Virus record (IMG/VR): IMGVR_UViG_2731957841_000003
Strand: one strand, 5' to 3'
DNA from: a virus
Lineage: Duplodnaviria > Heunggongvirae > Uroviricota > Caudoviricetes
DNA: 29,158 nt
Shown here: in pieces, positions 13,044-29,158 of the stretch
How the letters are laid out: every line of letters starts with the position of its first letter
Numbering within the stretch: the stretch's first letter is position 1
Program-made: the position numbers and the translations under genes
The notes under the pieces: model-generated
Seen by the model: the letters and a program-made list of their open reading frames with translations, nothing else
Databases searched by the model: none
Told to the model about the DNA's origin: nothing

Positions 13044-13180
13044 ATCTAAATATTCTTTCAATTATAACCACCTTGCTGCAATATTATGATTATACTGTAT
13101 AAAATTTAACTCCTCTTAGATCTTACTTCACTGTTCCTTATGAAACAATCATCAAAATGAATCATATTGTAGTTAAGATT

Positions 13181-13645: not shown

Positions 13646-14175
13646 TGATCTATCCCCCAACAGGCTAATGCGCTTTCCTGGTCACGACGAATAACCTGTC
13701 CATAGCAGTTATTTGAACGTATGCGGCAATCGCGCCCACCATCTTTTATCCACCAGCGAATCGCCTCGCATGCACCCTTACGATCACCGGCATTCAGCCG
13801 CTTATAAAACGTCGACGGGAAACACTTACCGGGGCCAATGTTATAGGGACAAAATGACGCTATACCCGCTTTCTGTGGTTCGGTCAGTGGTACTTTAATA
13901 TTGCGCTCCACCCATGCCAGCGCCTTATCACGTTCAATAGCGTTAACCTGGTCGCATTTTTCCTTCGACAGCCTCATTCCCGGTATGACGGGCTTACCAT
14001 CCACCATTGTGGCACCACGACAGATGGTCCATATACCGGAACCATCGCGGTATGCCGTTGTGTGGTTACCTTCTTTTTCATCCAGAAACTGGTCGAGAAT
14101 ATCAGGCGCAGGCGCACCGACGGCAATCAGTGCCAGAACGGCAGCCGACAGGCCGTATCTGATTTTTGCGTTCAT
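13642..14175 (-). CDS. R: SAR endolysin (GH24 T4-lysozyme-like with N-terminal signal-anchor-release segment)
   Basis: 177-aa ORF with N-terminal hydrophobic [16 protein letters not shown] followed by ...[22 protein letters not shown]... lysozyme motif; sits in the lysis cassette. Confidence 0.85.
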
Positions 14176-14280
14176 GGATATTTATCAGGATTTATCGGTT
14201 TCTGAACCCTGGATATGTTTATCTGTCCCGGCCTGTTGAATCAGGCAAGGAATAGTTAAATACAATAGAGAGGATTGTTT

Positions 14281-14553
14281 ATGGACAATAGCACCATTTC
14301 TCTACAGGAGTTGCTCGACTGCATTTCCAAGCTTCGGGATGATGTAAATGCCCTTACTGTCGCATTTTCATATCTGGCATTCTCAATTCCCAAGGAACAA
14401 ATGCAACCAACACTGGCATCGCTCCAGCTTGAATCACTCAACCCCAAATGGTCCCAGCAACAACAAAATTCTTTCAAGTGGCTGGCGGTATTACTGGAAG
14501 AAAAATATGCTGGTGAAATTACCATTTCGGCGGAGTCTTCAGTGAACCAGTAA
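14281..14553 (+). CDS. Hypothetical 90-aa protein on the opposite strand inside the lysis cassette
   Basis: ATG at 14281 preceded by AGAGAGG; protein-like helical composition; its 3' end overlaps the 3' end of the DUF1327-like gene by 35 nt (convergent). Confidence 0.4.
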   Translation: MDNSTISLQELLDCISKLRDDVNALTVAFSYLAFSIPKEQMQPTLASLQLESLNPKWSQQQQNSFKWLAVLLEEKYAGEITISAESSVNQ

Positions 14554-14863
14554 TTCTTCCCGGCAGTTTTCCTTTGTAGGTTATCCACACACCCTGCGCC
14601 TCTAAAATTATGGGGCGCTTTTCCGGTGACTGCTCATCCCCTTCACATAACCCGGCAGCAACATCCAGGAAGACCTGTCTGATGCTCCTTCTGGCTGCTG
14701 CCTCATAAAACTCCAGCGCGGCACCTTCAACACGGTCCAGCGAGATGTCCAGGTCTAAAATTTCACCGTCAAAGCGTTTTTTGTCCCGTAACGCTAAAGT
14801 TACCGTAACTTTATTCTCAAAATTGCGGATCCCTTTCACAATCAGTTCATAGTTTTGAGTCAT
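14519..14863 (-). CDS. DUF1327-family lysis-cassette protein (YdfR-like)
   Basis: 114-aa ORF directly downstream of the holin (MTQNYELIVKGIRNFENKVTVTLALRDKKRFDGEI...); position and N-terminal sequence resemble YdfR-type proteins (recollection). Confidence 0.6.
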   Translation of the reverse strand: MTQNYELIVKGIRNFENKVTVTLALRDKKRFDGEILDLDISLDRVEGAALEFYEAAARRSIRQVFLDVAAGLCEGDEQSPEKRPIILEAQGVWITYKGKLPGRITGSLKTPPKW

Positions 14864-14867
14864 TGAA

Positions 14868-15083
14868 TTACTCTCCCCGTGCAGCCTTACGCTTATCTTC
14901 TTTAATCTTGAAATAAAGATTTGTCAGATACGTCAACAGGCCAAACACCAGACTACCCAGCACACCTATTGCTGCCCACTGTGAGGGCGTGACTCTATCG
15001 AGCAACTGTAAAAACCAGTAGCCAGCACTGCCTGCGGAGGTGCCATAGGCGACACCTGTTGTTAACTTATCCATGGATTTCAT
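14868..15083 (-). CDS. S: Pinholin (phage 21 S21-like class II holin) with dual-start motif MKSM
   Basis: [71 protein letters not shown], 71 aa; strong SD GAGGTGGGGG upstream; paired with a SAR endolysin. Confidence 0.85.
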
Positions 15084-15422
15084 AACCCCCACCTCGCAGA
15101 TGCGGGCGCTGTGTAATGGAAACAAAAAATGGCCACCAGCGGCCCGTAAAAAACACCCCGTCAAAAGCACCGGCATCCGCAGATGCCCTTTGCGTGGCGT
15201 TATTTGATGCGCGCCAGGTGTGGCGCAAAGAAATGAAATAAGACTTATCGAAAATTAAGGTTAATTTGATGATTTAAACCACTTCTGAAGCTTAGTAGTA
15301 TGAACATGTCCCCAGAAGGGGCCAATACTTATTATTCTTCATGGACTTTGTCCCGCGGTCTTAATCCGACGACCGCGCTACTTTTCACCCTCTCGCAAAT
15401 TGCTATCTAAAGGACGTTGTCC

Positions 15423-15455
15423 CACGAGTATTCCTGTATGCTCGTGTCTTTTTTT
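15423..15455 (+). terminator. Rho-independent terminator, plus strand
   Basis: 8-bp stem cacgagta/tatgctcgtg with 8-nt loop followed by TCTTTTTTTG. Confidence 0.6.
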
Positions 15456-15471
15456 GTCCTGAGAAAGGAAT

Positions 15472-15496
15472 AAAAAAAACCGCCAGATATGGCGGT
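15472..15496 (-). terminator. Rho-independent terminator, minus strand, downstream of the tRNA pair
   Basis: 7-bp stem accgcca/tggcggt with 4-nt loop; on the minus strand it is followed by a run of 7-8 U (plus-strand A-run 15472..15478). Confidence 0.6.
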
Positions 15497-15859
15497 TGGT
15501 CAATGCAAGGGATGAATTTTTTAATTGTTATTAAACCGAGGCGTCGGGTGCCTCCCGAAGTATTCCGTGCTGCATGGATACTGTGGTTTCCCGCTAAACC
15601 GACTCTTTAAACCACCCTCGCACTGAGGAGCGCCTCTGTGGTGCTTTTACAACACCAAAATGATGCATCACCGACCCTGCCAGGAAATACAAAATCTCCA
15701 CCGATAATGCACCATTCTGCTGCCGTAAAAAATTAGCACTGAGGCTACACCCGGCCTCAAATCATAGCCAGAGAACAGAATGCTTTTTCAAAACAACCTG
15801 CTCCCACGTAATAAAAAAATACGCCAGTGCCGTAATACAATAAGGCTTGTTTTAAATGC

Positions 15860-15934
<75 letters not shown>

Positions 15935-15937
15935 ATA

Positions 15938-16013
<76 letters not shown>

Positions 16014-16248
16014 ATTGGTTCTTCAGGGGAGCGATATCACCGAGCAAAGAAGAGTTCCCCCTCAGAACCGTTTTCGATGATACGATTTAATATTCCAATC
16101 GCAACAACACTTTGCGTCAAGCTATGTAAATTTATTTATGTATTTTTATTTTATGTGAACATTTCACCTTCACTTAAAATATACGCGACAATATATAAAC
16201 AAATTTATTTTGAAGGCAATATTAAATGTCGTTTCTTATATCACACCA

Positions 16249-16280
16249 CAATAACAACAAAACCCGCTTGATGGCGGGTT
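16249..16280 (-). terminator. Candidate tR'-like terminator about 90 nt downstream of the Q stop
   Basis: 7-bp stem aacccgc/gcgggtt with 6-nt loop; minus-strand downstream sequence is U-rich (UUUGUUGUUAUU). Confidence 0.4.
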
Positions 16281-16365
16281 CTATTAAAGTTTAATTGCGC
16301 TTGATTCGCCTCGCGATACAGCTTTGCGAAGCGTAGCAAAATTGAAGCAGTTTACGCGTAAAAAA

Positions 16366-16908
16366 TCAAGCCGTTTTTTGAGCGAATGATTCTCGCATGG
16401 GAATGTATAGCGCATACTCAGCAACGGCCAACCAATTAGCAATTCGCTTTTCGCATGTGCTAAAACACCACTCTGGGTGTGCATCATTTAGCAATTCAGC
16501 CATTTTGCGTTTGGTCATCCCCCGCCCCTCATACCGTTGCCGAAGGACGCTAATCAATCCTGGATGCTCTGCCAGCACCTCACTTATGACCCGATCAATA
16601 CATAACGCCTCTGCATCAGTACAATGCGCCAGCCAGCTCTTTTGCTTACCGTTAATCATATCCCGCAAAAAAGCCTCAAGTTCAGACTTGTTCAGACCTG
16701 CTTTTTTCATCCTCCGGAGCGCCTCGTTAATTGCCGTTTTTGTCAGCTTTTTAGAGGCCAACAACTGGTTGAACATATTCCCCGTCTTACCGCCGCCAAT
16801 ATACGACCAGCGCCCCCACATGCGCAGTTTTCCCTGAATCCAGACACTTTCCAGCGTGGTGAGACGAAGGTGTTCCCCGCTTTTGCCTGTATTTGTTGGG
16901 TAAATCAT
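16366..16908 (-). CDS. Late-gene antiterminator Q-like protein
   Basis: 180 aa from MIYPTNTGKSGEHLRLTTLESVWIQGKLRMWGRW...; ATGA overlap with the upstream DUF1364 gene; lies immediately upstream of terminator, tRNAs and lysis genes (classic Q position). Family assignment by context and partial motif recollection. Confidence 0.6.
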   Translation of the reverse strand: MIYPTNTGKSGEHLRLTTLESVWIQGKLRMWGRWSYIGGGKTGNMFNQLLASKKLTKTAINEALRRMKKAGLNKSELEAFLRDMINGKQKSWLAHCTDAEALCIDRVISEVLAEHPGLISVLRQRYEGRGMTKRKMAELLNDAHPEWCFSTCEKRIANWLAVAEYALYIPMRESFAQKTA

Positions 16909-17195
16909 AAATAACCTTCCTTTCTCCAGATTTCTTGCGTGCGAAAAACACCTTCTGCATGCATCAGGCGTAAATCTTCTTTGGTGTAATCGCTTGTTTT
17001 TACCCGCCCGTCGATTAAATCGTGGCATGAGCTACAGGCAATCGCCGCCTGCATATCGTGTGGTTTTGTCGCTGTTCCGCACGTTCCCGCCAGTCGGTAA
17101 TGCGCCAGCACAGACGTTTCCGGATCGTGATTGCTGTAGCCAAGAATTCTGACGGTGCACATCCGCCCCCGCGCCGCTTTACGTAAATCCACCAT
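16905..17195 (-). CDS. DUF1364-family protein (YbcO-like, Cys-rich putative nuclease)
   Basis: 96 aa with conserved Cys/His pattern (C...C...CSSCHD); translationally coupled to flanking genes (TAATG and ATGA overlaps); DLP12 ybcO occupies the equivalent position upstream of Q (recollection). Confidence 0.55.
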   Translation of the reverse strand: MVDLRKAARGRMCTVRILGYSNHDPETSVLAHYRLAGTCGTATKPHDMQAAIACSSCHDLIDGRVKTSDYTKEDLRLMHAEGVFRTQEIWRKEGYL

Positions 17196-17794
17196 TACGC
17201 AAACTCCAGCAGCTGCGCGGCCACATTTTCGACTTGTTCCGGAGAGGAAAATTTACGGAACAGAATCCAGTTCCACAGCACATTCAGAACAGATTTATAA
17301 ACCTGCTGAAACTCGGTTTCGTCCATATTCGCAAAAGCGATAGATTTTGCCCGACGCCCGCGGCTACCGTCCGGATAAAAATGTTCGGTGTAAAATCCAG
17401 CCTGAATGGTTACCCACTCGCGAAAAGCCTCAAACGACTTTAGCAATGCCGTATCCCGGGTTCTGCGTGTCGCAACTGTATTCAGATATTGCTCTGCGGC
17501 ATCACTCAGGGCTGGCGTGTGTTCCCGACCAACTGATTCGCACAAGTAATCCACGAAACCAGACAGCAGTTCTCGTTCGCGAGGTGTGATCGCCCCACCG
17601 ACCGGAGTCCAGTAATCGAATCCCAGTTGCAGGAGTTTGAAAAAACGCTTGTGGAATGCGTAGTTACGCACACGCTTAAAGTCTGCGTGTATCCACTCAC
17701 CTATTTTGATTTGATGCAGAAAATCGCAACTCTCCGGCGTCGCCGGGAGAAGTAAACCAGAAGAGGTTTGTTTGACCAGTTGTATATGCGCCAT
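17195..17794 (-). CDS. DUF1367-family lambdoid phage protein (YbcN/YdfU-like)
   Basis: 199-aa ORF; position upstream of DUF1364 and Q as in DLP12/Qin (recollection). Confidence 0.55.
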   Translation of the reverse strand: MAHIQLVKQTSSGLLLPATPESCDFLHQIKIGEWIHADFKRVRNYAFHKRFFKLLQLGFDYWTPVGGAITPRERELLSGFVDYLCESVGREHTPALSDAAEQYLNTVATRRTRDTALLKSFEAFREWVTIQAGFYTEHFYPDGSRGRRAKSIAFANMDETEFQQVYKSVLNVLWNWILFRKFSSPEQVENVAAQLLEFA

Positions 17795-18074
17795 TTCTCA
17801 ATCTCTCGATGGCGCAGCGCAGCAGATGCCAGTTGTTCAGGCTGACGAATAAAGTATAAATAAACTGGCTATGGTGTAAAGCCCCACATAGCATGAACAA
17901 ACACTACATATCAAATAGCTGGTACAAGGATAGAAATACGACACTTATTATTAAAAACGATTAGATAAATTACATTTTAATGTTATGCAAAAGTTCTTTT
18001 TTATCATAACATTTCAATAAAAGCATTACAGATGCAATCATCCCGTCATCATCAATTATTTAAGGTGGTTAAAC

Positions 18075-18161
18075 ATGGAAAATAACAAGTTCGCACATCT
18101 CGCTCCTTTTTTATCCGTAATCCTTTTCGCTTGTTGTTTTATATGGGCATTATTTTTATAA
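18075..18161 (+). CDS. 28-aa hydrophobic peptide (MENNKFAHLAPFLSVILFACCFIWALFL): possible small membrane protein or type I toxin-like peptide
   Basis: ATG preceded by AAGGTGG at 6-nt spacing; single predicted transmembrane helix; sits in an AT-rich intergenic stretch. Confidence 0.4.
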   Translation: MENNKFAHLAPFLSVILFACCFIWALFL

Positions 18162-18552
18162 AGTAGCCACATGATAAGTTGCTGGAATCATATTTCCCAC
18201 TCAAGTCATTAACATTTGATAAGATATATCTAAAAGGACGCCTTTACATTATTTATGCGTATATAATTTATTTATATACACAGTAAAGGTATCCTGGGAA
18301 AATATTTATCGTTAAAAAATACATCATAAATAATTAAGCTGAAATTTCAGAACACAACTAATACACACAATAAGGTTCAGTAACAGTAATCTATGTGGAC
18401 TACATCGAGATTTTTTGATTAAACTTTAATAACTTATTCCTAACACACAGAATGCATAAACTAAAAGTAAAACAAATAGTTATACGAAAAACAACCATAT
18501 TTATTCTATCTTCTCCTCTAATCAACATATCAATTATGTGTTTCATAACAGC

Positions 18553-18592
18553 TTGACATAACCCTCCAAAAGATGCATTTTTAATGCATGTT
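18553..18592 (+). promoter_or_regulatory. Putative promoter (-35 TTGACA at 18553..18558) with overlapping NsrR-type operator AAGATGCATTT-T-TAATGCATGTT (18570..18592)
   Basis: Perfect -35 hexamer; 11-1-11 inverted repeat with ATGCAT cores matching the NsrR consensus as I recall it; about 15 nt upstream of the SD of the yeaR-like gene. Confidence 0.55.
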
Positions 18593-18607
18593 TTGGAGGA
18601 GGTGGTT

Positions 18608-18946
18608 ATGACACACAAGAGAATTCCTAAAGATTGGGTAATCAAACGCTCAACTCCGTTCTTCACAAAAGAGAACGTACCTTCAGCGTTATTAACACAT
18701 CATAATACAGCAGCAGGTGTTTTTGGGCAGTTGTGCGTAATGGAAGGCACTGTAACATATTATGGTTTTACTGATGAGAATGCTACTGAACCGGAGATAA
18801 AAGTAGTCATTAATGCTGGCGCTTTTGCAACAAGCCCACCACAATACTGGCACCGTGTTGAACTAAGCGATGATGCTCAGTTTAATATTAACTTTTGGGT
18901 CGCTCCAGACTTCTCGGGCGAAAAAGTCTATAGCACCAAAAAATAG
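18608..18946 (+). CDS. YeaR-like DUF1971 protein (TehB-related)
   Basis: 112 aa from MTHKRIPKDWVIKRSTPFFTKENVPSALLTHH...; strong SD GGAGGAGGTGG; similar to E. coli YeaR as I recall it (...RSTPFWNKQTAPAG...); opposite strand to flanking phage genes. Confidence 0.7.
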   Translation: MTHKRIPKDWVIKRSTPFFTKENVPSALLTHHNTAAGVFGQLCVMEGTVTYYGFTDENATEPEIKVVINAGAFATSPPQYWHRVELSDDAQFNINFWVAPDFSGEKVYSTKK

Positions 18947-18975
18947 ATGATCATATTAAAAATGCTTTAACAGTC

Positions 18976-19012
18976 AGACCCGGCAGGGCTATCCCCGACG
19001 GGTCTCATTTTT
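18976..19012 (+). terminator. Candidate rho-independent terminator for the yeaR-like gene
   Basis: Stem agacccg/cgggtct (large loop) followed by CATTTTTG, 30 nt after the stop codon. Confidence 0.45.
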
Positions 19013-19566
19013 GTAAATATATTGGTTCTACATTGACAGGAGACTTCAACCATAAGAAGTAATCTGAATACTTGAGCAATAAATTTACTTAAGATTAATG
19101 AGCGCACCTTGCCGGACAAAGATAAACCAAGGTAACACCTTTTTTCTAGCCAGTATGTAATCAATCAGAAAGCCGCTCCATAAGAACAACAGCAAGACAA
19201 TAAATTGCCATTACAGCCGCAATAGCCAGCGCACATTTGAGAACCAGCACGACAACCCCCTGTATTAGACGCACACCAGTCCTGATAAATATGAGGCTGT
19301 ATCGTCAGTGATTCAATACAACTATTGGGTATAGTTTCTGTGATTTTATTCTGTAGAAATGGAACACAACAACCAGTCACCACCAGCACTTCCTTAAATG
19401 CTCTAAGTCAGAAACAAGCCAACATTTTAGTCCGCTTTGAGCGATCTGCAGACATTGCTAGCAGCCTTCTGTGTGAATTCTCAGGGAGCAGGTCGGCATA
19501 GCATCACGTTGAGGCTCTTACCCTACTTGTTCACACCAACCCTAACTCCACAGACTGATTCATAAA

Positions 19567-20568
19567 TTAGTAATCTGCGTGTTTCGCACTTTTCAGAAAT
19601 GCTTTCATATTTTCATTAGGTCGCTCAATTTCGAAGTTACTTCCATATAACTCTTGTAATTTTGGCCATAACTTACTTAATAACCCTCTCCTGCGATAAA
19701 ATGGATGTATCCAAACGGTAGATAGGTACGGAGAATTTGCATTTGAATTGTTTATTGTGACCAGCCCAACTAAACATTGTCGATAACCACTATTATCCAT
19801 TGATTGTATTTCTTCGACGAATGGATACGCGATTACATCAGTCCAACCATGATCGGTTGTATCCCATTGCATTCCGTCATGACATTCCTTCGACTGATAG
19901 CGGCGTAAAGCTACACACGCGAGCTTTTGCCAATCTGGAGAATTAATTGTGATCTCTTCATCGTATGACGCGCCTATTGGAGCGGGTATTGGTCTGATTA
20001 ATCCAGCATGGCATTCATCATAGAACTTCATGTTTCCCTCAGAAACGTTGTGTACGTTGGGTTGCTCCATGTGTGCGCCATTCAAAAATAGCTCTGATAG
20101 TAGTGTATCTACACTGTAATCTTTATTGATTATTGTCGGCTTAGAGTTTTTCTTATTAAGGCCGCGAGTAACGATTTTTTGATCAATGTTAACAACATGG
20201 AATAATCCGTCGGGGAGGCTAGCGAACCACGATGGGGCATCGGACCAGAATAGCATGCCTTTTGTACTTCTTAAGAGTTTAATTAAGTTAATACAAGCTT
20301 CTTCACTAGTCTTGCCGTTGATGCGAAGTATGTTAGGACTAAAGTAATATTCATCCATATCAGGGAATGCAGCTTCGCAAAACTCCTGTACATAATTTAG
20401 CACCTGGATTCTACAGAGATCATCATAGCTGGTAATAACTAAGGGGGTATCTTCATTACTATTATGATTATCAATAATGCAATCTATAGCGAGACTTACT
20501 GCTTTGCGTATCACTTCAGTTGAATCTAACGACTCTAAAAATTTTGTCTTTCGTGTGCGAATATCCAT
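19567..20568 (-). CDS. Hypothetical 333-aa protein with C-terminal GNAT-like acetyltransferase motif (second gene of AT-rich cargo cassette)
   Basis: C-terminal ...LSTVWIHPFYRRRGLLSKLWPKLQEL... resembles GNAT motif A (beta4-alpha3, R-x-x-G); N-terminal ~250 aa unassigned; AT-rich codon usage; 15-bp gap to upstream gene. Confidence 0.5.
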   Translation of the reverse strand: MDIRTRKTKFLESLDSTEVIRKAVSLAIDCIIDNHNSNEDTPLVITSYDDLCRIQVLNYVQEFCEAAFPDMDEYYFSPNILRINGKTSEEACINLIKLLRSTKGMLFWSDAPSWFASLPDGLFHVVNIDQKIVTRGLNKKNSKPTIINKDYSVDTLLSELFLNGAHMEQPNVHNVSEGNMKFYDECHAGLIRPIPAPIGASYDEEITINSPDWQKLACVALRRYQSKECHDGMQWDTTDHGWTDVIAYPFVEEIQSMDNSGYRQCLVGLVTINNSNANSPYLSTVWIHPFYRRRGLLSKLWPKLQELYGSNFEIERPNENMKAFLKSAKHADY

Positions 20569-20583
20569 GTATGACCTGCGCTA

Positions 20584-21606
20584 TTAAAATTCATGAATGA
20601 ACGGTTTGTCATCTGGTTGCAAAATGGTGGTTTTATTCGTTGCTACATTTAAACTGTTGTAGAGCATAATTGCCAGGTTCGATGCATTTTCAATCAGCGT
20701 TTCAAGATCCTGGTCTGTAATCACTACGAGGTTCCCTTCTTTATCCTTTCCACCACGATGCACTAAGTGATTTCGATTGAGGGTTGCCAATTCAATAGCT
20801 TCTATCGGACAGTCTTTTTGTACTTTTATATCGAATGTAGCTTCATAGCGGTCGATTACCTTTTTAGTGCTATGCCAGCTTGCACTGATCAAGTGTTCCT
20901 TGATTGACCTGATTAGCTCTCCCCTAATTTTCTCGATGGGTTCACCCTTGAAAGGCAACGCAGCAATATCTTTGCTTACTTTAAATTCAGTCTTACCTTT
21001 TTCTATACAATTGGCTATGTAGACATCATCTTTCTCTATAGAATTAATGAATAGCTCAACATAAAGCGTTTCCAAAGCTGTAATAACATTCGTGTAGAGC
21101 AAACTAAGCAAGTGGTTTTTTTGCTGTTGTTCAGTTTTATCTTTTGCAAGTTTTTTTATTTTATCGATATTATCAATGAATTTTAAATACGGATTACCGG
21201 AAGACGTTACAGCGTCGTAGATATCATCATCGTACCAATCATCTATATTATTTGAGTTTCCAGACCAGTCAAAACATTGTGTTTGTAATTCATCTACTAA
21301 TTCCTCAATATACTCAGATTTAACATATTGACCGAAGATGGATTGTAGTTCTTCGCTCGCATCATACGGCCCGCCATATATGTAAGCATAGCCACCTTCT
21401 CTACTTTCATACGGACAAGCATTTGCCGGATCTTCAAAGTTTTCAAAGAACCAGTTTTTCATTACTTCGAGTTGATCTTTTTTGCTTATGTATTTTAAAG
21501 ATTTTAGTGGAACTTTCTTTCCATTAACCTCGAAAACAATTTTCACGATGTAACGCTCCCTTGTATCAATTGCGCAACTATTATACCACAGCGAAATACA
21601 GGGCAT
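20584..21606 (-). CDS. Hypothetical 340-aa protein with C-terminal R-x4-H (HEPN-like) motif (first gene of AT-rich cargo cassette)
   Basis: ORF listed as 363 aa; preferred start is the ATG at 21606 (MPCISLWYNS...) preceded by AAGGAGG. C-terminal ...ELATLNRNHLVHRGG... carries R-x4-H; strongly AT-rich. Confidence 0.5.
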   Translation of the reverse strand: MPCISLWYNSCAIDTRERYIVKIVFEVNGKKVPLKSLKYISKKDQLEVMKNWFFENFEDPANACPYESREGGYAYIYGGPYDASEELQSIFGQYVKSEYIEELVDELQTQCFDWSGNSNNIDDWYDDDIYDAVTSSGNPYLKFIDNIDKIKKLAKDKTEQQQKNHLLSLLYTNVITALETLYVELFINSIEKDDVYIANCIEKGKTEFKVSKDIAALPFKGEPIEKIRGELIRSIKEHLISASWHSTKKVIDRYEATFDIKVQKDCPIEAIELATLNRNHLVHRGGKDKEGNLVVITDQDLETLIENASNLAIMLYNSLNVATNKTTILQPDDKPFIHEF

Positions 21607-21744
21607 AACCTGCCTCCTTAAACTAACATACCATGAGCCAGCAATGTCCGCTATTGGCACAAAGCGGACAACCACGCTAGCTCTCCCCTGTGCCAGAAAA
21701 ATGTCAATTTACATATGAACTAATGCTCTTTGATCTAGTAACGT

Positions 21745-22176
21745 CTATAAATACCGAAGATTTCCTTGATAAAATGCCAGTACACGTTTCATAACTTCAC
21801 TCTTCCGGCACTCGCGACAGATTATGTTCTGACGCCTGTCATAGCGGCGTATTTCTCCGTCTGGTAATGACCAGATAAGGTCAGGATCAACCACAACCGT
21901 TTTTTTCACCTTTGCCCTGGATAGTTTTTTGCGGGCGTTTTTCCAATCCTTACGAGCCTGTTCAGACGGGAATAACCCATAGCCAGAGTTGTATACATCG
22001 CCACTGGCAACCAACTCTCTGGCAAGAATGCTCATCAGATATCTTGTCGCACCTGTCTTGGCCTCCAGTTGCCTTAACGTCTCGCGCCCACTCTGGCGTA
22101 CCAACTCAACAACCTGCTCCTTAATTTTTTCACGCTCTTCCTGTGTAAAAACTTTTGCCATAAGCGCCTCCGGCAA
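21745..22176 (-). CDS. Hypothetical basic 143-aa protein (nin-region-like position)
   Basis: ORF contiguous with the upstream gene (stop/start adjacent at 22176/22177); lysine/arginine-rich; no recognisable motif. Confidence 0.45.
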   Translation of the reverse strand: MPEALMAKVFTQEEREKIKEQVVELVRQSGRETLRQLEAKTGATRYLMSILARELVASGDVYNSGYGLFPSEQARKDWKNARKKLSRAKVKKTVVVDPDLIWSLPDGEIRRYDRRQNIICRECRKSEVMKRVLAFYQGNLRYL

Positions 22177-22938
22177 TCACTTTTCCGACACAATACGACT
22201 GGAGGAATCGACAATCTGTCGGACAATATCCCGGTGCTTGTTCAGCTCCCGCAGCGCGGCGCAGACTCGCTCCCACTTCTGGACATGATTTTTCGCCCGA
22301 CGCAGTTCGCGGTTTGCCATATGCAGCGATGGTAAAACTAGGTCATCCGCTTGCGTTTCAGTAAACGATGGCAGCGACTGCACAATGTCCGCCACAGTTT
22401 CTGTTTTAATATCTTCCTGTGTTGCCGCTTCCTGTACTGGTAACGCAACACCGGCTGGCTGAGGAAAGGCTTTACCATCAGTTTCCGCTACCGATGCAGC
22501 TTTCGGCTCTGCTGGTAAATTATCGCCCGGCATGCAGTAACGAAATTTACCGTTCTGGTTTACGCGAATCAGGCGTCCTTTGCTGATTGCCATTGCCAGC
22601 GTTGAAGCAACTTTGCGGGATGTTGTACCGAACAGCGTAGCCAGTTCATCCGCCGTTTGTGGTCCGCGTTGTTCAATCGTCGCGGTTAAATCGCACTCTG
22701 AGATTTTCACTACAGTTGCCGTGGTGGTTTCTTCCGGCAGTTCTGCCTGCATTGGCTGTTCCTGCTGAACGTTGTTATCAGCCACACGCCAGGTGTACGC
22801 GCTTTTATCAACGAAACCAGCTTTTTTCAGTTCCCATAGTTCGTTCAGCACTTCTTCACGACTGATATCAAGTCGCGCAGCAAGTTCTATGGATGTGGCT
22901 TTTCCCATTGCTTTCAGTGCGTCAAAAACAGTCTCCAT
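22177..22938 (-). CDS. Hypothetical protein with two winged-helix-like segments, downstream of the DnaC-like gene
   Basis: Likely start ATG at 22938 ([43 protein letters not shown]...) preceded by GGGAGG; second similar segment [32 protein letters not shown]. Confidence 0.5.
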
Positions 22939-22960
22939 AAAAATTTCCTCCCGGTAAAAA

Positions 22961-23707
22961 TTACTTCTCAATTCCTGGCTGGACGACATTCGGACGCCAG
23001 CTCTCCCAGTTAAAATTCACCCATCGCCCGCCGTTCATGGTCATGCGATCCATAATCCGCTCGCCGAGCAATGTTTTCATGGCCTCATAGTTCAGGTTTG
23101 TCAGCATCCCCACGCTGCGCATCGACGCTGTCCGGCGATCAACAATCTGGTGCAGCACCACCTGCTCGTTTTTCGTCTCGCGCTGAATGCCAATTTCATC
23201 AAGAACCAGCAGATCCACTTCGCATAGTTCCCGCAAAAATTTTTCGCCTGACTGCCCATCGTCATAGCTGGCGTGCAGGGCACTCATAACATCAGCCACG
23301 GTAACCACAATCACTGTCTGAACGTCTTTCAGCAGGCGATTCCCGATAGCTGCCGCTAAGTGGTTCTTCCCGGTACCAGGTTTTCCGCTGAACGCAAAAT
23401 TTGTACACCCGGTCATCAGTTCATCAGCGATGGATTTCGCCTGACTCAACGCGTATCGCTGCGCTTCGTTCTGCACCTGGTAATTCGAAAACGAGCATTT
23501 GCGGTGCAATGGCTGGATGCCAGAGCGATTCAGAATTTTTTCCACCCGCAACTGACGATTCTGACGGTTGATCTCCTCACAACGTTTCTGGCCTTCGGAA
23601 AGTTGCCACTCGCGCCACTCCGCTACCGTCTTGAATGGCGCGGTTACATGTGACGGGGCCAGTCTGCGGATACGTTCAAGAACGTCGCCTGTCGCAATAT
23701 TTTTCAT
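22961..23707 (-). CDS. ydaV: DnaC/IstB-like replication helicase loader (YdaV-like)
   Basis: Walker [16 protein letters not shown] and Walker [10 protein letters not shown]; 248 aa. Confidence 0.85.
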
Positions 23708-23713
23708 GGTCAG

Positions 23714-24475
23714 TTACCCCCTGAAGCCTGGCGGGATCGCACTATCCGGTAACGAGACGGTGTTAACCTGTCGGAGTAACGTCTCAGGTCGAACACCTTT
23801 CGGCGCGAACAAGCCCTGGTATTCATTGGCGATGCTGTGTCGAATCACCTGCTCAGGTGAAAAACCCTGCTGGCGGAATTTTTCCAGCTCCCGTATCGCC
23901 CCGTTAGCGCCCTGCTCCGTTCGAATCGGTTTTCGCAATGCCTGGCGAAATTCAACCCACTCACGCCAAAGCGAGACAGAAATCCAGTTCGGCAAAGCAA
24001 TATCCAGAGGGTCAAACTTTTTGACACCTCGATTCCCCCGGGGGGGATTTAGGGGGGGATCTGTTTTTAGATCTTTATCTGTATCTTTATTAGTTGCCTT
24101 TGTGTTGACATCATGTTCAAACACCACTTCAACATCTGTTTGAACACCTGTTAAATTTCTCTCTTGTTTTGTTTGAACATCTGCTTCCTTTCTGCTTCTT
24201 CTGGCCTGAACAGATGCTTTTCCTGCGGCTGATTTTTTGGTTAATTTTTCCCTGACTGATGCCAGATCTTCCTCAATCCGAAGATGCACCCATTCCTCGC
24301 CGTTATCGCAAAAAAACTCCTGCAAGGATGGTTCAACATCAGCCCATCGCTCGTTAGTCAGACGGGCAATTTTTGCCAGCCTGTTTTTAGGTATTGGCTT
24401 TCCTGTTTGCCAGTAATTGAACATCAGCAACAAATACGCACCATGCTCCTCTGCTGAAGGGTAATCGTGTTTCAC
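23714..24475 (-). pseudogene. ydaU: DUF1376 replication protein (YdaU-like), 5'-truncated at a deletion junction
   Basis: ORF begins with GTG at 24475 ((M)[24 protein letters not shown]...) and an in-frame stop lies 2 codons upstream, so the usual N-terminal ~25-30 residues of this family are absent. K-12 YdaU is 285 aa by memory versus 253 here. Confidence 0.6.
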
Positions 24476-24476
24476 A

Positions 24477-26373
24477 CATCACTCGCACGGCTTCCGGTGC
24501 TAATGCTGGCGGCGGAAACCTCACCGATCGCGGCGAAGGTTTCGTACACGATCTGACGTCACTGGCGCGGGACGTAGCCACTGGCGTACTGGCCCGTTCA
24601 ATGGATCTGGACATCTATAACCTTCATCCGGCACACGCTAAACGCATTGAGGAAATTATCGCTGAAAATAAACCGCCCTTTTCTGTTTTCCGCGACAAAT
24701 TCATCACCATGCCTGGCGGGCTGGATTATTCCCGCGCCATCGTGGTTGCGTCCGTAAAAGAAGCACCAATTGGGATCGAGGTCATCCCCGCGCACGTCAC
24801 TGAATATCTGAACAAAGTACTGACTGAAACCGATCATGCCAACCCTGATCCGGAAATCGTGGATATTGCCTGCGGTCGCTCCTCTGCCCCGATGCCGCAG
24901 CGAGTAACAGAAGAAGGAAAACAGGATGATGAAGAAAAACCGCAACCATCTGGAACAACGGCAGTTGAACAGGGAGAGGCTGAAACAATGGAACCGGACG
25001 CAACTGAACATCATCAGGACACGCAGCCGCTGGATGCTCAGTCACAGGTAAATTCTGTTGATGCGAAATATCAGGAACTGCGGGCAGAACTCCATGAAGC
25101 CCGGAAAAACATTCCATCAAAAAATCCTGTCGATGCCGATAAATTGCTTGCTGCATCACGTGGTGAATTTGTTGACGGAATTAGCGACCCGAACGATCCG
25201 AAATGGGTAAAGGGGATCCAGACTCGCGATTGTGTGTACCAGAACCAGCCAGAAACGGAAAAAACCAGCCCGGATATGAATCAACCTGAGCCAGTAGTGC
25301 AACAGGAACCGGAAATAGCCTGCAATGCCTGCGGCCAGACTGGCGGGGATAACTGCCCTGACTGTGGTGCGGTGATGGGCGACGCAACATACCAGGAAAC
25401 ATTCGATGAAGAGAGTCAGGTTGAAGCTAAGGAAAATGATCCGGAGGAAATGGAAGGCGCTGAACATCCGCACAATGAGAATGCTGGCAGCGATCCGCAT
25501 CGCGATTGCAGTGATGAAACTGGCGAAGTCGCAGATCCCGTAATCGTAGAAGACATAGAGCCAGGTATTTATTACGGAATTTCGAATGAGAATTACCACG
25601 CGGGTCCCGGTGTCAGTAAGTCTCAGCTCGATGACATTGCTGATACTCCGGCACTGTATTTGTGGCGTAAAAATGCCCCCGTGGACACCACAAAGACAAA
25701 AACGCTCGATTTAGGAACCGCTTTCCACTGCCGGGTACTTGAGCCGGAAGAATTCAGTAACCGCTTTATCGTAGCACCTGAATTTAACCGCCGGACAAAC
25801 TCCGGAAAAGAAGAAGAGAAAGCGTTTCTGAGGGAATGCGCAAGCACAGGAAAAACGGTTATCACTGCCGAAGAAGGCCGGAAAATTGAACTCATGTATC
25901 AGAGCGTTATGGCTTTGCCGCTGGGGCAATGGCTTGTTGAAAGCGCCGGACACGCTGAATCATCAATTTACTGGGAAGATCCTGAAACAGCAATTTTGTG
26001 TCGGTGCCGTCCGGACAAAATTATCCCTGAATTTCACTGGATCATGGACGTGAAAACTACGGCGGATATTCAACGATTCAAAACCGCTTATTACGACTAC
26101 CGCTATCACGTTCAGGATGCATTCTACAGTGACGGTTATGAAGCACAGTTTGGAGTGCAGCCAACTTTCGTTTTTCTGGTTGCCAGCACAACTATTGAAT
26201 GCGGACGTTATCCGGTTGAAATTTTCATGATGGGCGAAGAAGCAAAACTGGCAGGTCAGCTGGAATATCACCGCAATCTGCGAACCCTGGCTGACTGCCT
26301 CAATACCGATGAATGGCCAGCTATTAAGACGTTATCACTGCCCCGCTGGGCTAAGGAATATGCAAATGACTAA
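24477..26373 (+). pseudogene. recE: Exonuclease VIII RecE, 5'-truncated (C-terminal ~2/3 retained; first in-frame ATG at 24601)
   Basis: 590-aa ORF from the 24601 ATG whose frame is open upstream to 24421; C-terminal nuclease region; TAA overlaps the recT ATG (ATGACTAA). K-12 RecE is 866 aa by memory. Confidence 0.75.
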
Positions 26374-27175
26374 GCAACCACCAATCGCAAAAGCCGATCT
26401 GCAAAAAACTCAGGGAAACCGTGCACCAGCAGCAATTAAAAATAACGACGTGATTAGTTTTATTAACCAGCCATCAATGAAAGAGCAACTGGCAGCAGCT
26501 CTTCCACGCCATATGACGGCTGAACGTATGATCCGTATCGCCACCACAGAAATTCGTAAAGTTCCGGCGTTAGGAAACTGTGACACTATGAGTTTTGTCA
26601 GTGCAATCGTACAGTGTTCACAGCTCGGACTTGAGCCCGGTAGCGCCCTCGGTCATGCATATTTACTGCCTTTTGGTAATAAAAACGAAAAGAGCGGTAA
26701 AAAAAACGTTCAGCTAATCATTGGCTATCGCGGCATGATTGATCTGGCTCGCCGTTCAGGTCAAATCGCCAGCCTGTCAGCCCGTGTTGTCCGTGAAGGT
26801 GACGAGTTTAATTTCGAATTTGGCCTTGATGAAAAGTTAATACACCGCCCAGGAGAAAACGAAGATGCCCCTGTTACCCACGTCTATGCTGTCGCAAGAC
26901 TGAAAGACGGAGGTACTCAGTTTGAAGTTATGACGCGCAAACAGATTGAGCTGGTGCGCAGCCAGAGTAAAGCTGGTAATAACGGGCCGTGGGTAACTCA
27001 CTGGGAAGAAATGGCAAAGAAAACGGCTATTCGTCGCCTGTTCAAATATCTGCCCGTATCAATTGAGATCCAGCGTGCAGTATCAATGGATGAAAAGGAA
27101 CCACTGACAATCGATCCTGCAGATTCCTCTGTATTAACCGGGGAATACAGTGTAATCGATAATTCAGAGGAATAA
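26366..27175 (+). CDS. recT: Recombinase RecT (single-strand annealing protein)
   Basis: 269 aa from [27 protein letters not shown]...; matches my recollection of K-12 RecT; canonical position after recE. Confidence 0.9.
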
Positions 27176-27230
27176 TTCAGCCTGGCGGTGTAATGCACCG
27201 CCAACTTGAAATATTTTTATGAGAAAAATT

Positions 27231-27380
27231 ATGAGATATGACAATGTTAAACCATGTCCATTTTGTGGTTGTCCATCAGTAACGGTGAAAGCCATTTCAG
27301 GATATTACCGAGCGAAGTGTAACGGATGCGAATCCCGAACCGGTTATGGTGGAAGTGAAAAAGAAGCACTCGAACGATGA
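27231..27380 (+). pseudogene. ralR: Restriction-alleviation protein/type I toxin RalR (Lar) with in-frame TGA at codon 50
   Basis: MRYDNVKPCPFCGCPSVTVKAISGYYRAKCNGCESRTGYGGSEKEALER then TGA; the same frame continues NKRTTGNNNGGVHV to a TAA at 27423..27425 overlapping the ydaC ATG, giving the 64 aa I recall for Lar. Confidence 0.6.
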
Positions 27381-27417
27381 AATAAACGAACCACTGGAAA
27401 TAATAATGGAGGTGTTC

Positions 27418-27606
27418 ATGTATAAAATTACCGCCACTATTGAAAAGGAAGGTGGCACTCCTACTAACTGGACAAGATATTCAAAATCTAAACTAACGAA
27501 ATCAGAATGCGAAAAAATGCTCTCAGGTAAAAAAGAAGCAGGCGTTTCCAGAGAGCAGAAAGTAAAACTGATAAATTTTAATTGCGAGAAACTTCAGTCC
27601 TCGTGA
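27418..27606 (+). CDS. ydaC: Rac-type small protein YdaC
   Basis: 62-aa ORF MYKITATIEKEGGTPTNWTRYSKSKL... with SD GGAGG at 5-nt spacing; position between ralR and xis. Confidence 0.7.
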   Translation: MYKITATIEKEGGTPTNWTRYSKSKLTKSECEKMLSGKKEAGVSREQKVKLINFNCEKLQSS

Positions 27607-27705
27607 ATTGCATTGTATTCAAATTAAAACTTCATAGCTGATTATTAATAATCAACATCGGGCGTCAATTTAAGTCTAACATTGGCGCCTGCCAGAGGTG
27701 ATGCG

Positions 27706-27921
27706 ATGGCACAAGTAATCTTTAATGAAGAGTGGATGGTTGAATACGGCCTGATGCTTCGCACTGGTCTGGGGGCCAGACAAATTGAAGCATACCGCCA
27801 GAACTGTTGGGTGGAAGGCTTCCACTTCAAACGAGTATCTCCTTTAGGGAAGCCAGACAGTAAGCGAGGGATTATCTGGTATAACTATCCAAAGATAAAT
27901 CAGTTTATCAAAGACTCATGA
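27706..27921 (+). CDS. xisR: Excisionase (XisR/YdaQ-like)
   Basis: 71 aa from [43 protein letters not shown]...; stop 1 nt before the int ATG. Confidence 0.75.
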
Positions 27922-27922
27922 T

Positions 27923-29158
27923 ATGTCTAAATTACCAACAGGTGTCGAGATTCGAGGTAAATACATTCGCATCTGGTTCATGTTTCGAGGAAAACGATGT
28001 CGGGAAACATTGAAAGGCTGGGAGGTTACTAACAGTAACATTAAAAAAGCTGGGAATTTAAGAGCGTTGATAGTTCATGAAATCAATTCCGGTGAGTTTG
28101 AGTATTTAAGACGTTTTCCCCAGCCCAGCACTGGGGCAAAAATAGTGACAACGAGGGTCATAAAAACGTTCGGGGAGCTTTGTGATATCTGGACAAAAAT
28201 TAAAGAAACAGAGTTAACAACAAACACAATGAAGAAAACGAAATCACAATTAAAAACACTCAGGATAATAATTTGTGAGAGTACTCCGATATCGCATATT
28301 CGTTATAGCGATATCTTAAACTACCGGAATGAACTGCTGCATGGAGAAACGCTTTACCTGGATAATCCAAGATCCAACAAAAAAGGAAGAACCGTGCGCA
28401 CAGTTGATAACTATATCGCCCTGCTCTGTTCGTTGTTACGTTTTGCGTATCAGTCGGGATTTATATCAACCAAACCATTTGAAGGAGTAAAGAAATTACA
28501 GAGAAACAGAATAAAGCCTGACCCGTTATCTAAAACAGAATTCAATGCATTAATGGAAAGTGAAAAAGGACAGAGCCAGAACTTGTGGAAATTTGCCGTA
28601 TACTCCGGGCTTCGTCACGGGGAACTGGCTGCTCTGGCGTGGGAGGATGTGGATTTCGAGAAGGGAGTTGTGAATGTCAGAAGAAACCTGACGATACTGG
28701 ATATGTTCGGTCCCCCAAAAACAAATGCGGGGATCCGGACGGTAACACTACTGCAGCCTGCTCTTGAAGCACTGAAGGAGCAATACAAACTGACCGGGCA
28801 TCATCGCAAAAGCGAAATCACTTTTTATCATCGGGAGTACGGCAGAACCGAAAAGCAAAAACTGCATTTTGTTTTCATGCCCAGAGTGTGTAACGGAAAA
28901 CAGAAACCTTATTACTCGGTAAGCAGTTTGGGTGCGAGATGGAATGCAGCAGTAAAACGTGCTGGTATTCGCCGCCGTAATCCGTACCATACGCGGCATA
29001 CTTTTGCCTGCTGGCTGTTGACGGCAGGAGCGAACCCGGCGTTTATAGCCAGCCAGATGGGGCATGAAACTGCGCAGATGGTGTATGAAATTTACGGTAT
29101 GTGGATTGATGACATGAACGACGAACAGGTAGCCATGTTGAATGCGCGGTTATCGTAG
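27923..29158 (+). CDS. intR: Tyrosine site-specific integrase (Rac IntR-like)
   Basis: 411-aa ORF with the C-terminal catalytic region ...HTRHTFACWLL...GHETAQMVYEIYGMW...; ends at the last base of the window. Confidence 0.9.
   Translation: MSKLPTGVEIRGKYIRIWFMFRGKRCRETLKGWEVTNSNIKKAGNLRALIVHEINSGEFEYLRRFPQPSTGAKIVTTRVIKTFGELCDIWTKIKETELTTNTMKKTKSQLKTLRIIICESTPISHIRYSDILNYRNELLHGETLYLDNPRSNKKGRTVRTVDNYIALLCSLLRFAYQSGFISTKPFEGVKKLQRNRIKPDPLSKTEFNALMESEKGQSQNLWKFAVYSGLRHGELAALAWEDVDFEKGVVNVRRNLTILDMFGPPKTNAGIRTVTLLQPALEALKEQYKLTGHHRKSEITFYHREYGRTEKQKLHFVFMPRVCNGKQKPYYSVSSLGARWNAAVKRAGIRRRNPYHTRHTFACWLLTAGANPAFIASQMGHETAQMVYEIYGMWIDDMNDEQVAMLNARLS

Follow-up and report, generated by a model that had tools for sequence, protein, structure and literature searches.

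The recE/ydaU junction of a Rac-family prophage in Escherichia coli as the likely scar of a 4.3-kb immunity-region deletion

The window, i.e., the whole 29,158-nucleotide stretch of viral DNA analysed here, carries near its right-hand end a recE gene and a ydaU-like gene that abut divergently, each lacking its 5′ portion (Table 1). To the right of this pair, recT overlaps the end of recE as it does in K-12, and the excisionase and integrase genes follow, with the last base of the window (29158) closing the intR stop codon. Contigs that are 100% identical across the junction run on into a ttcA family gene (PF01171) and dbpA, again as in K-12; in one of these loci (L007), int is followed by the ttcA family (PF01171) and DbpA. 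To the left, ydaV comes after the ydaU remnant and no longer has the PR-type promoter that natively precedes it. The prophage is also defective elsewhere, with a 10-kb deletion of the head and terminase genes and a frameshift in the tape-measure gene. The neighbouring cargo pair gave only sub-threshold matches in PADLOC and Pfam.

Table 1. Features at and around the recE/ydaU junction (positions in the window).
Feature	Positions	Strand	Extent and basis
ydaV (DnaC/IstB-like ATPase), intact	22961–23707	−	Pfam IstB_IS21/Bac_DnaA; annotation of relatives
ydaU remnant (DUF1376)	23714–24454	−	nt 118–858, codons 40–285 and stop; alignment to K-12, LD27-1 and CH4799
Retained first 7 nt (CTGCTGA) of the 11-nt repeat CTGCTGACAAA	24451–24457	+	Comparison with L004 and K-12
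Deletion junction	24455–24457	.	TGA common to both parents: ydaU nt 115–117 (antisense), recE nt 683–685
Antisense recE DNA, six codons GTG AAA CAC GAT TAC CCT	24458–24475	−	Start of the chimeric 253-aa "YdaU" ORF
recE remnant	24458–26373	+	nt 686–2601, codons 229–866
Longest conventionally initiated ORF, RecE 277–866 (590 aa)	24601–26373	+	ORF list; complete PD-(D/E)XK nuclease domain
recT, intact, 269 aa	26366–27175	+	Pfam RecT; collinear with NCTC10444 recT, 99.94% identity
xisR and intR, intact	27706–29158	+	Collinear with NCTC10444 xisR/intR; attachment-site end

The Rac prophage of K-12 (NC_000913.3, 1,411,899–1,434,958) resembles the window in having intR-xisR beside ttcA and in its gene order of int, xis, rcbA/DUF1187, ralR/RalA, recT and recE, followed further on by ydaU, ydaV and ydaW/DUF1627. 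The recE-recT-ralR/RalA and ydaU-ydaV-ydaW modules both keep this order, nucleotide identity to K-12 is about 99% (99.1% in recE, 99.4% in ydaU-ydaV), and the window holds a match to RalA (Rfam RF02694, 225 bits). Unlike the window, K-12 Rac retains racC, ydaE, kilR, kilS, sieB, ydaF, ydaG, racR, ydaS and ydaT, and its recE and ydaU genes are full-length. The window in turn keeps more of the late genes (tail and lysis) than K-12, but has its own 10-kb head/terminase deletion. The closest collinear relative found is a prophage of E. coli NCTC10444 (NZ_LR134092.1, about 2,724,000–2,763,809), which shares the same cargo pair, trkG, TAGT and ParB-like genes. It differs from the window in possessing a 4,341-bp immunity segment, a 10,001-bp head/terminase segment and an uninterrupted tape-measure gene. 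This intact Rac-like prophage has the locus label L004, to which the L004 coordinates below refer.

On the right side of the junction, the recE sequence of the window is identical to that of NCTC10444 from nt 683 onwards (1946/1946 nt by blastn). The initial annotation held that recE lacks roughly its N-terminal third and that its frame is open only from 24421, and both the reading frame and the alignment agree: a TGA at 24418–24420, 12 codons upstream of the junction, closes the frame. The loss amounts to 682 of 2601 nt (26%) when counted to the junction and to 32% when counted to the first usable ATG, Met277 at 24601, which is the earliest ATG, GTG or TTG in the frame. The full-length 866-aa RecE, with its N-terminal region and native start, is absent from the window. 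Its C-terminal nuclease domain (K-12 residues about 564–866) is present whole, as had been supposed for the exonuclease-bearing part of the protein. Pfam places PF12684 (DUF3799, PD-(D/E)XK) at the C-terminus of the recE frame (E = 2.8e-26), and residues 4–265 of PDB 3H4R align to residues 329–590 of the 590-aa ORF (E = 4e-177). This 590-aa "exonuclease VIII" is the product of a 5′-truncated pseudogene and not a natural short form; analogous recE alleles are tagged "incomplete; missing N-terminus" by PGAP.

On the left side, ydaU matches NCTC10444 at 757 of 758 positions up to L004 30765 (blastn). The gene has lost the first 114 of its 858 nt (38 codons), and its mapping to K-12 begins at ydaU nt 115. 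As the match to PF07120 (DUF1376) begins only at position 18 of the 86 in the profile, the ORF is N-terminally incomplete. The minus-strand ORF (23714–24475) opens, as first described, at a GTG at 24475 with a stop two codons upstream, a TGA according to the frame and the ORF list. This GTG and the five codons that follow it are antisense recE DNA, and the 253-aa ORF is therefore chimeric. It consists of MKHDYP, which does not occur in full-length YdaU, joined to YdaU residues 39–285. The six residues replace residues 1–38 of the 285-aa YdaU, corresponding to residues 1–21 of the 268-aa form that starts MAALPYMQ. The only repeat family near the junction is a 12-nt motif inside ydaU, which is unrelated to the join.

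The observation being structural, alignment was used to test it in place of a chance model. Mapping of the breakpoint on Rac-like prophages, which the initial annotation had proposed as a check, was carried out by nucleotide alignment to NCTC10444 and K-12. The join runs from 24454 through the shared TGA to 24458. The breakpoint thus falls within the interval of 24400–24620 first proposed for it; its placement near 24476 was off by about 20 bp, the true join lying further to the left. In the blastn comparison, window positions 16304–24457 align to L004 22611–30765 (98.4% identity) and positions 24455–29158 to L004 35107–39810 (99.94%). The two blocks overlap by 3 nt, have the same orientation and are collinear with NCTC10444, and matches to recE alone start at window position 24455 (position 76 of the query).

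A single collinear segment of 4,341 bp, L004 30766–35106, is absent from the window. According to the annotation of the intact relative, it comprises ydaU nt 1–114, ydaT, a cro-like HTH gene, a cI-like (RacR-type) HTH gene, a ydaG-like ORF, ydaF, sieB, kilR, ydaE, racC and recE nt 1–682. Its K-12 counterpart spans 1,416,705–1,421,232, where the annotated gene order is the same as in NCTC10444 and includes racR, ydaS and ydaT; the separation of recE and ydaU by immunity genes in K-12, as stated in the initial annotation, is correct. The initial annotation had allowed that both genes might be naturally short and adjacent in intact relatives, or that the intervening genes might lie elsewhere in the prophage. 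Intact relatives carry both genes at full length with the immunity region between them, and neither the deleted DNA nor its proteins were found elsewhere in the whole window by blastn and tblastn.

RecE homologues do differ in size, down to forms made up of nothing but the nuclease domain (PMC11611040), so that a short RecE and a short YdaU could be imagined to stand head to head in a functional phage that never suffered a deletion. This has next to no probability here. The flanks are 99.9–100% identical to the full-length genes up to one abrupt breakpoint, the DUF1376 match begins at profile position 18, the start of the ORF is antisense recE DNA, and the prophage is otherwise defective. Since the Rac immunity region, with its racR/cI-type repressor and divergent cro- and cII-type genes, has been deleted, the window represents a deletion derivative and not a different family. 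The site is very probably the mark left by a 4.3-kb deletion within a lambdoid prophage of the Rac family that sits beside ttcA in E. coli.

Carriers of the same junction argue that it is real. The junction 30-mer was recovered at five loci (L007, L008, L010, L011 and L012) in four records with three different distal contexts; the records are two ENA metagenome scaffolds and two NCBI genomes, one of them on a 4.66-Mb contig. These loci are 99.99–100% identical to the window over 7–11 kb. In an exact-protein look-up of NCBI, ENA and Logan, the chimeric YdaU′ protein (UniParc UPI00070DD110) was found on 67 contigs, and it was solely by this route that the junction came to light outside the window. 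Carrier strains include GCA_033843385.1, GCA_012601775.1 and E. coli VL2732. A mis-assembled or chimeric contig from a genome that is intact at this point could be suspected, given that a single sequence was supplied and that the junction is missing from several collections: a 161-nt query did not find it in 5,426 complete RefSeq E. coli genomes, and the 30-mer was absent from JGI metagenome contigs and from IMG/VR. Recurrence of the 30-mer in independently assembled records, the 67 contigs with the junction-specific protein and the analogous junctions in finished genomes leave such an artefact a negligible probability. The absence from these collections indicates instead that the junction is confined to a small clade. 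A shallow clade of E. coli has inherited the allele and has since undergone further deletions. Not one base on the recE side is substituted in comparison with intact relatives, so the event is too young for selection to be tested.

Illegitimate recombination at short homologies is suggested by the sequence around the breakpoints. A direct repeat of 11 nt, CTGCTGACAAA, lies at L004 30759–30769 and 35088–35098 and is present in K-12 as well. In the intact prophages, one copy spans the ydaU breakpoint and the recE copy ends 8 nt before the first retained base of recE. When pairs of 80-nt windows are drawn at random from this region, 0.18% of them share a word of at least 11 nt. No IS element, att-like repeat or long repeat was found around the junction. 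The flanks are collinear, the bases shared are few, and neither an IS nor a site-specific recombination site is present, which is the pattern of a short-homology deletion. Because the join itself, where only 3 nt are shared, is slightly offset from the 11-nt repeat, the role of the repeat is inferred. A RecA-independent event is proposed, in which the repeat would have aligned the two deletion ends. The product would correspond to a precise repeat-mediated deletion minus a further 15 nt between two TGA triplets, and this extra loss may reflect sloppy resolution of the same event or a second small slip. The initial annotation attributed the loss of the repressor, the kil function and the divergent promoters to one deletion. 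The loss of the genes is evident from the alignment; a single event is the simplest reading, but is unproven because the junction looks like a repeat-guided deletion with the additional 15-nt loss.

Five other junctions cross the same module: the LD27-1 type, CH4799, FDN-24/FDN-9, CP61_Sichuan and a locus in GCA_900479895.1 (L009). These are recE′/ydaU′ or recE′/ydaT′ joins and, like the window, all lack the repressor/cro/cII/kil core and carry a 5′-truncated recE. The LD27-1 type is present in 9 complete genomes and its YdaU′ protein on 212 contigs. Microhomology at the joins of these alleles measures 2–10 nt. In contrast to the window, their breakpoints in L004 coordinates are 30820/35009, 31039/34743, 30790/35644 and 30207/34842, and in L009 cargo-region DNA is joined to recE nt 690. 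As breakpoints, flanking haplotypes and distal contexts differ, most of the alleles are independent events. As the recE breakpoint of L009 is only 7 nt away, a secondary origin of L009 from the window allele was considered; this was rejected as unsupported, since the left flank of L009 is only 94.6% identical to the window, and such proximity has a chance of roughly 0.2 with six alleles. Members of the 268-aa YdaU cluster were likewise discarded as additional deletion alleles, since they arise from placing the start at Met18 in the 285-aa annotation. The right-hand breakpoints seen (recE nt 319–1220) all precede the nuclease domain, but this apparent sparing comes from a similarity search ranked by coverage, in which deletions into the domain would be lost from sight amid thousands of matches to recE alone.

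The deleted intervals are nested in L004 (CH4799, 31040–34742; LD27-1 type, 30821–35008; window, 30766–35106), which raises the question of whether an older and smaller immunity-region deletion was enlarged across its own junction in successive steps. FDN-24, which has the flanking context of LD27-1 with a larger deletion, fits such a series, as do the extra 15 nt lost in the window and the speed with which the window-type clade gains further deletions (L008 and L012). Stepwise enlargement is nevertheless rather unlikely. The recE side of the window is 100% identical to recE of the NCTC10444 type, from which LD27-1, CH4799 and FDN-24 differ by 13–20 substitutions, so the window allele did not descend from any of them. 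Moreover, the hypothetical intermediate joined precisely at CTGCTGACAAA, with the predicted allele ...CTCCTCTGCTGACAAAAGAGTGGATGAAGGG..., was not among the 5,426 complete genomes.

The consequences of the deletion would be considerable for the prophage itself. The repressor, the Cro/CII-type switch, both divergent early promoters with their operators, the Kil function and SieB exclusion would all have been lost together. A prophage without this switch could neither be induced nor poison the cell, and its repressor would no longer be needed. With the native promoters gone, the ′recE-recT and ′ydaU-ydaV-DUF1627-DUF977 remnants are probably silent. For ′recE-recT and ′ydaU-ydaV, this view draws on promoter loss and on a crude consensus scan, in which no promoter-like site was detected on either strand in 23900–24900 or on the plus strand in 21173–27134, and site counts were at chance level. 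Because the RecE nuclease domain is complete and RecT intact, the recombinase activity would be latent rather than destroyed.

Among the classical sbcA and recE-suppressor alleles of K-12 are deletions by which recE becomes fused to sequences upstream of it. The present deletion, in taking away the repressor and the 5′ part of recE, might similarly have brought recT and the nuclease-coding part of recE under the control of a new promoter or into a translational fusion, creating a constitutive RecE′T recombinase. Retention of the whole nuclease domain and of recT would suit this, and in genetic tests RecE of full length can be replaced by its nuclease domain alone (PMC11611040). Such an activating rearrangement is very improbable in the window. 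The stop upstream of the junction and the late first start codon speak against a fusion, no Shine–Dalgarno-like motif stands just before 24601 (CCCGTTCA), the plus strand lacks promoter-like sites in the interval scanned, the DNA upstream consists of ydaU and ydaV in antisense, and two terminator-like hairpins lie on the plus strand at 24349–24377. No new promoter or fusion was found at the junction, and, as far as the sequence and the promoter scan show, recE is neither in frame with an expressed upstream ORF nor under an active promoter.

Loss of this module has precedents. In K-12, racR is essential, and its removal is tolerated only when ydaS-ydaT and the intergenic operator region go with it; one viable engineered deletion spanned sieB to ydaU (Krishnamurthi et al. 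2017, PMC5700373). The same study found kilR and ydaS missing from most of 154 E. coli genomes, with ydaS always accompanied by racR and recE conserved. Joint loss of racR, ydaS and kilR from Rac has been described before. The window deletion removes the same gene set as the engineered racR deletions and goes beyond them, with kilR, racC and the 5′ end of recE also gone. Whereas the engineered deletions have designed end points, the window holds a natural allele with short-homology ends inside recE and ydaU. A comparison can also be made with "grounded" prophages, which have lost their att sites or recombinase and retain immunity (Ramisetty and Sudhakari 2019, PMC6379469). Both kinds have been made permanently harmless to the host by mutation and then decay; unlike grounded prophages, the window prophage has int, xis and the att-side end intact and has lost the immunity switch.

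A more ambitious proposal is that immunity-region deletions in Rac form a recurrent, selected and possibly self-catalysed escape route rather than random decay. On failure of repression, the early-left operon would make RecE and RecT together with Kil and YdaS/T; RecET-promoted joining at short homologies, here at CTGCTGACAAA, would delete the toxic switch, and in the cells that survive, the nuclease domain of RecE, RecT and YdaU/V would be preserved as latent assets of the host. It would fit that the same core is missing at six or more distinct junctions, that the right-hand breakpoints seen in the coverage-ranked search all precede the nuclease domain, and that ydaS/T without the repressor occurs in no allele seen. 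Little credence is given to this proposal. The deletion is real and inherited, yet it is an ordinary case of prophage decay.

This scar leaves the current understanding of Rac unchanged. For annotation, it identifies the 253-aa "YdaU family protein" (UPI00070DD110) as a deletion chimera. It provides a prophage disarmed by loss of its switch while integrase and excisionase are kept, and a natural counterpart of the K-12 result, in which the Rac repressor is lost only along with the genes it represses. Carrier strains are expected to have no Rac immunity, no SieB exclusion, no KilR and no stress-linked RacR/YdaST circuit, and would be natural controls for studies of that circuit.

A Rac-type lambdoid prophage of E. 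coli makes up the window, in the orientation opposite to the K-12 map. Its junction region was aligned with K-12 Rac, two similarly truncated strains and the Rac-like prophage of E. coli NCTC10444 (locus L004), the closest intact relative found. Window positions 16304-24457 correspond to L004 22611-30765, and positions 24455-29158 to L004 35107-39810 in unchanged orientation. The two blocks overlap by 3 bases, and the join is therefore 24454 / TGA (24455-24457) / 24458. This agrees with a 161-nt query spanning the join, whose recE-only matches begin exactly at 24455. The initial annotation had placed the abutting truncated ends of recE and the ydaU-like gene near 24476; the ends do abut, at a join about 20 bp to the left. 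It had also read a recE frame shut by a stop at 24418-24420 and a minus-strand ORF starting at GTG 24475 with a TGA two codons upstream, and both readings agree with the sequence. The missing interval runs from 1,416,705 to 1,421,232 in K-12 coordinates, with nt 1-114 of ydaU and nt 1-682 of recE absent from the window, and the DUF1376 match on the ydaU-type ORF begins only at profile position 18. Both genes are truncated members of their families.

Features of the window prophage and junction alleles across the Rac immunity module (window coordinates unless L004 is named)
Feature	Position	Strand	Remarks
Tape-measure gene	5584-8816	minus	frameshifted, break near 7140-7167; ORFs of 559 and 498 aa
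Second deletion junction	9636-9639		GCTT common to both parents; relative to NCTC10444
TAGT and ParB_N-domain genes	9732-13061	minus	adjoin trkG
Lysis/late-regulation variant	13645-16303		non-collinear with NCTC10444
Two tRNA genes	15863-15934, 15941-16013	minus	within 13645-16303
Two-gene cargo	19567-21606	minus	333 aa and 340 aa; between DUF1971 and DUF977 genes
DUF977 gene	21745-22176	minus	
DUF1627/ydaW-type gene	22177-22989	minus	
ydaV	22961-23707	minus	
DUF1376/ydaU-type ORF	23714-24475	minus	
recE-type frame	open from 24421, stop 26373	plus	first ATG 24601
recT	26366-27175	plus	
ralR with RalA sRNA, xisR, intR	3′ of recT	plus (group)	intR ends at last base of window
Short ralR variant	27231-27380		49-53 aa
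RalA antitoxin sRNA	27424-27602	minus	full-length (Rfam RF02694, 225 bits); opposite DUF1187-type ORF
Window allele	L004 30765 / 35107		3 nt shared (TGA); chimeric YdaU′ on 67 contigs (NCBI, ENA, Logan)
LD27-1 type	L004 30820 / 35009		4 nt shared (TAAT); 9 complete genomes; YdaU′ on 212 contigs
CH4799	L004 31039 / 34743		4 nt shared; 144 nt of ydaT kept
FDN-24 / FDN-9	L004 30790 / 35644		2 nt shared; flanking context as LD27-1
CP61_Sichuan	L004 30207 / 34842		10 nt shared; Rac variant, ~95% identical
GCA_900479895.1 (L009)	cargo-region DNA / recE nt 690		5 nt shared (TAATC); left flank 94.6% identical to window

The segment missing relative to the NCTC10444-type prophage is 4,341 bp long. It holds the ydaU 5′ end, ydaT, a cro-like HTH gene, a divergent cI-like HTH gene, a ydaG-like ORF, ydaF, sieB, kilR, ydaE, racC and the recE 5′ end. 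K-12 Rac has the same gene order, with racR, ydaS and ydaT; RacR is viewed as the repressor of the Rac immunity region, and YdaS and YdaT as the counterparts of Cro and CII (PMC5917428). The content of the segment in the intact relative and in K-12 upholds the earlier proposal that the deletion took the repressor, the kil function and both divergent early promoters. The two genes could instead be naturally short and adjacent in intact relatives, or the intervening genes could lie elsewhere in the prophage. NCTC10444 and K-12 keep both genes at full length with the immunity region between them, and searches of the rest of the window with the deleted DNA (blastn) and with its eleven protein products (tblastn) gave no match. 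As both alternatives fail, the deletion interpretation stands.

Both flanks of the join are collinear with the intact prophage, and no IS element or long repeat was found at it. K-12 and other intact prophages have an 11-nt direct repeat, CTGCTGACAAA, one copy of which spans the ydaU breakpoint, and the other, in recE, ends 8 nt before the first kept recE base. A shared word of at least 11 nt occurs in only 0.18% of random 80-nt window pairs from the junction region. The observed junction is what a deletion exactly at the repeat would leave, less another 15 nt between two TGA triplets, and it has the characteristics of a short-homology deletion. The proposed mechanism is that illegitimate recombination at short homology would have produced the deletion, with an imprecise resolution or a small slip afterwards. 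The junction is compatible with one step and with two; the precise repeat-joined intermediate has no record among 5,426 complete genomes.

The exact junction was not found in the 5,426 complete RefSeq E. coli genomes, JGI metagenome contigs or IMG/VR. The chimeric YdaU′ protein specific to it is present on further contigs (table), and a junction 30-mer occurs in five fetched loci drawn from four records: a pair of ENA metagenome scaffolds and a pair of NCBI genomes, of which one has the junction on a 4.66-Mb contig. Over 7-11 kb these loci match the window at 99.99-100% identity, and they show three distal contexts: that of the window (L007, L010 and L011), an extra 8.9-kb deletion of window 13333-22199 (L008, ENA ERZ28601619 scaffold_69), and the replacement of all beyond window 21197 by chromosomal genes (L012). 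As the junction occurs in several records with differing distal contexts, an assembly artefact can be rejected. The clade marked by the junction is shallow, and the junction cannot be younger than the further losses of L008 and L012. On the recE side the window and intact relatives agree at every base (1946/1946 nt); therefore, the event is recent and selection tests on the remnant are uninformative. The L008 deletion, at 3600-3602 (window equivalents 13332 and 22200), fuses DUF1627 to a lysis gene, and outside it L008 is 100% identical to the window. This locus shows ongoing rapid decay within the clade.

Five further junctions were found across the same immunity module. Descent of the window allele from the LD27-1, CH4799, FDN-24 or L009 alleles is ruled out by the flanking haplotypes. 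In L009, DNA upstream of the DUF1971 gene is joined to recE at UINK01000010.1 5862-5866 (window equivalents 18523 and 24462). This independent, larger deletion takes the cargo pair, DUF977, DUF1627, ydaV, ydaU and the immunity region, and its recE breakpoint, 7 nt from that of the window, is probably a coincidence (a chance of ~0.2 among six alleles). The repressor is lost along with the cro/cII-type genes and kilR in 6/6 alleles, and ydaS/T are kept without it in 0/6. This agrees with K-12 genetics, in which racR is essential and deletable only along with ydaS-T and the operator region (PMC5700373). Among 154 genomes, kilR and ydaS are missing in most strains, ydaS is always alongside racR and recE is widely retained (PMC5700373). 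Since the K-12 genetics and this survey match the alleles, the general co-loss pattern is already published; the window's specific allele apparently has no description in the literature searchable here. Joins of the recE′/ydaU′ or recE′/ydaT′ type are rare (13/5,426 complete genomes), and PGAP already marks analogous alleles as 5′-truncated recE pseudogenes. The apparent sparing of the nuclease domain is qualified by the ranking of the allele search by coverage, which would hide deletions into that domain.

Of the recE frame, codons 229-866 remain. With the ATG of codon 228 lost to the deletion, the first conventional start left is Met277 (RecE numbering) at 24601. A PD-(D/E)XK domain match confirms the nuclease domain initially assigned to the C-terminus, and the remnant contains the complete crystallised domain (PDB 3H4R). 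This domain can genetically substitute for full-length RecE, and the N-terminal region mainly boosts linear-linear recombination (PMC11611040). The remnant is predicted to be intrinsically not dead. On the opposite strand, the GTG at 24475 and the next five codons are recE DNA in antisense, and thus the 253-aa “YdaU” is a chimera, consisting of MKHDYP and YdaU residues 39-285. Inside the ydaU remnant, at 24128-24428, a 12-nt motif, TTGAACATCTGY, occurs five times (copies 83-100% identical), three of them within 57 bp. By analogy with lambda O, the copies could be putative iterons of a replication origin inside an initiator-like gene.

The remnant operons are without their native promoters. A consensus scan of both strands of 23900-24900 and of the plus strand from 21173 to 27134 detected no sigma-70-like site, and overall counts were at chance level. 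The recE frame has no in-frame start codon 5′ of 24601 and no Shine–Dalgarno-like sequence ahead of it. Given the lack of a promoter-like site, an earlier start and a Shine–Dalgarno sequence, ′recE-recT and ′ydaU-ydaV are probably silent. A minor rival explanation is that the junction is an sbcA-like fusion activating recE; the sequence does not support this, and the sbcA-type hallmarks are absent at the junction.

The immunity deletion is one among several decay events in this prophage. At the second junction, 10,001 bp of the NCTC10444-type prophage (L004 5686-15686) are absent, comprising the ydaY start and the tail tube, head, portal and large and small terminase genes. The intact 1077-aa tape-measure protein matches the window (tblastn) in frame -3 and then frame -2. 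Because of the head and terminase loss, the tape-measure frameshift and the non-collinear lysis segment, the prophage is multiply defective. The integrase and excisionase genes, intR and xisR, are intact.

The cargo pair has only sub-threshold Pfam matches (GNAT; HEPN/RES N-terminal domain 1) and no credible PADLOC match. Near this position, DUF262, NACHT, SIR2 or ATP-dependent nuclease genes occur in other Rac variants, so the pair may be a putative defence or toxin module, so far uncharacterised, at a hotspot for cargo genes. The TAGT (TET-associated glycosyltransferase, PF20691) and ParB_N genes of this Rac variant may together make up a DNA-modification module; K-12 retains only the ynaK fragment.

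The window prophage lacks the immunity region expected of the Rac family because that region is deleted. “Grounded” prophages have lost att sites or the recombinase and keep immunity (PMC6379469), whereas here the recombinase is kept and the switch is lost. The allele is of use mainly to annotation and to studies of the RacR/YdaST circuit, for which it is a natural control. The repressor, operators and early promoters of the prophage are inferred to be gone, as are the Cro/CII switch, KilR and SieB. Neither induction nor toxicity is expected of such a prophage, and its host should gain from it neither Rac immunity nor SieB exclusion.
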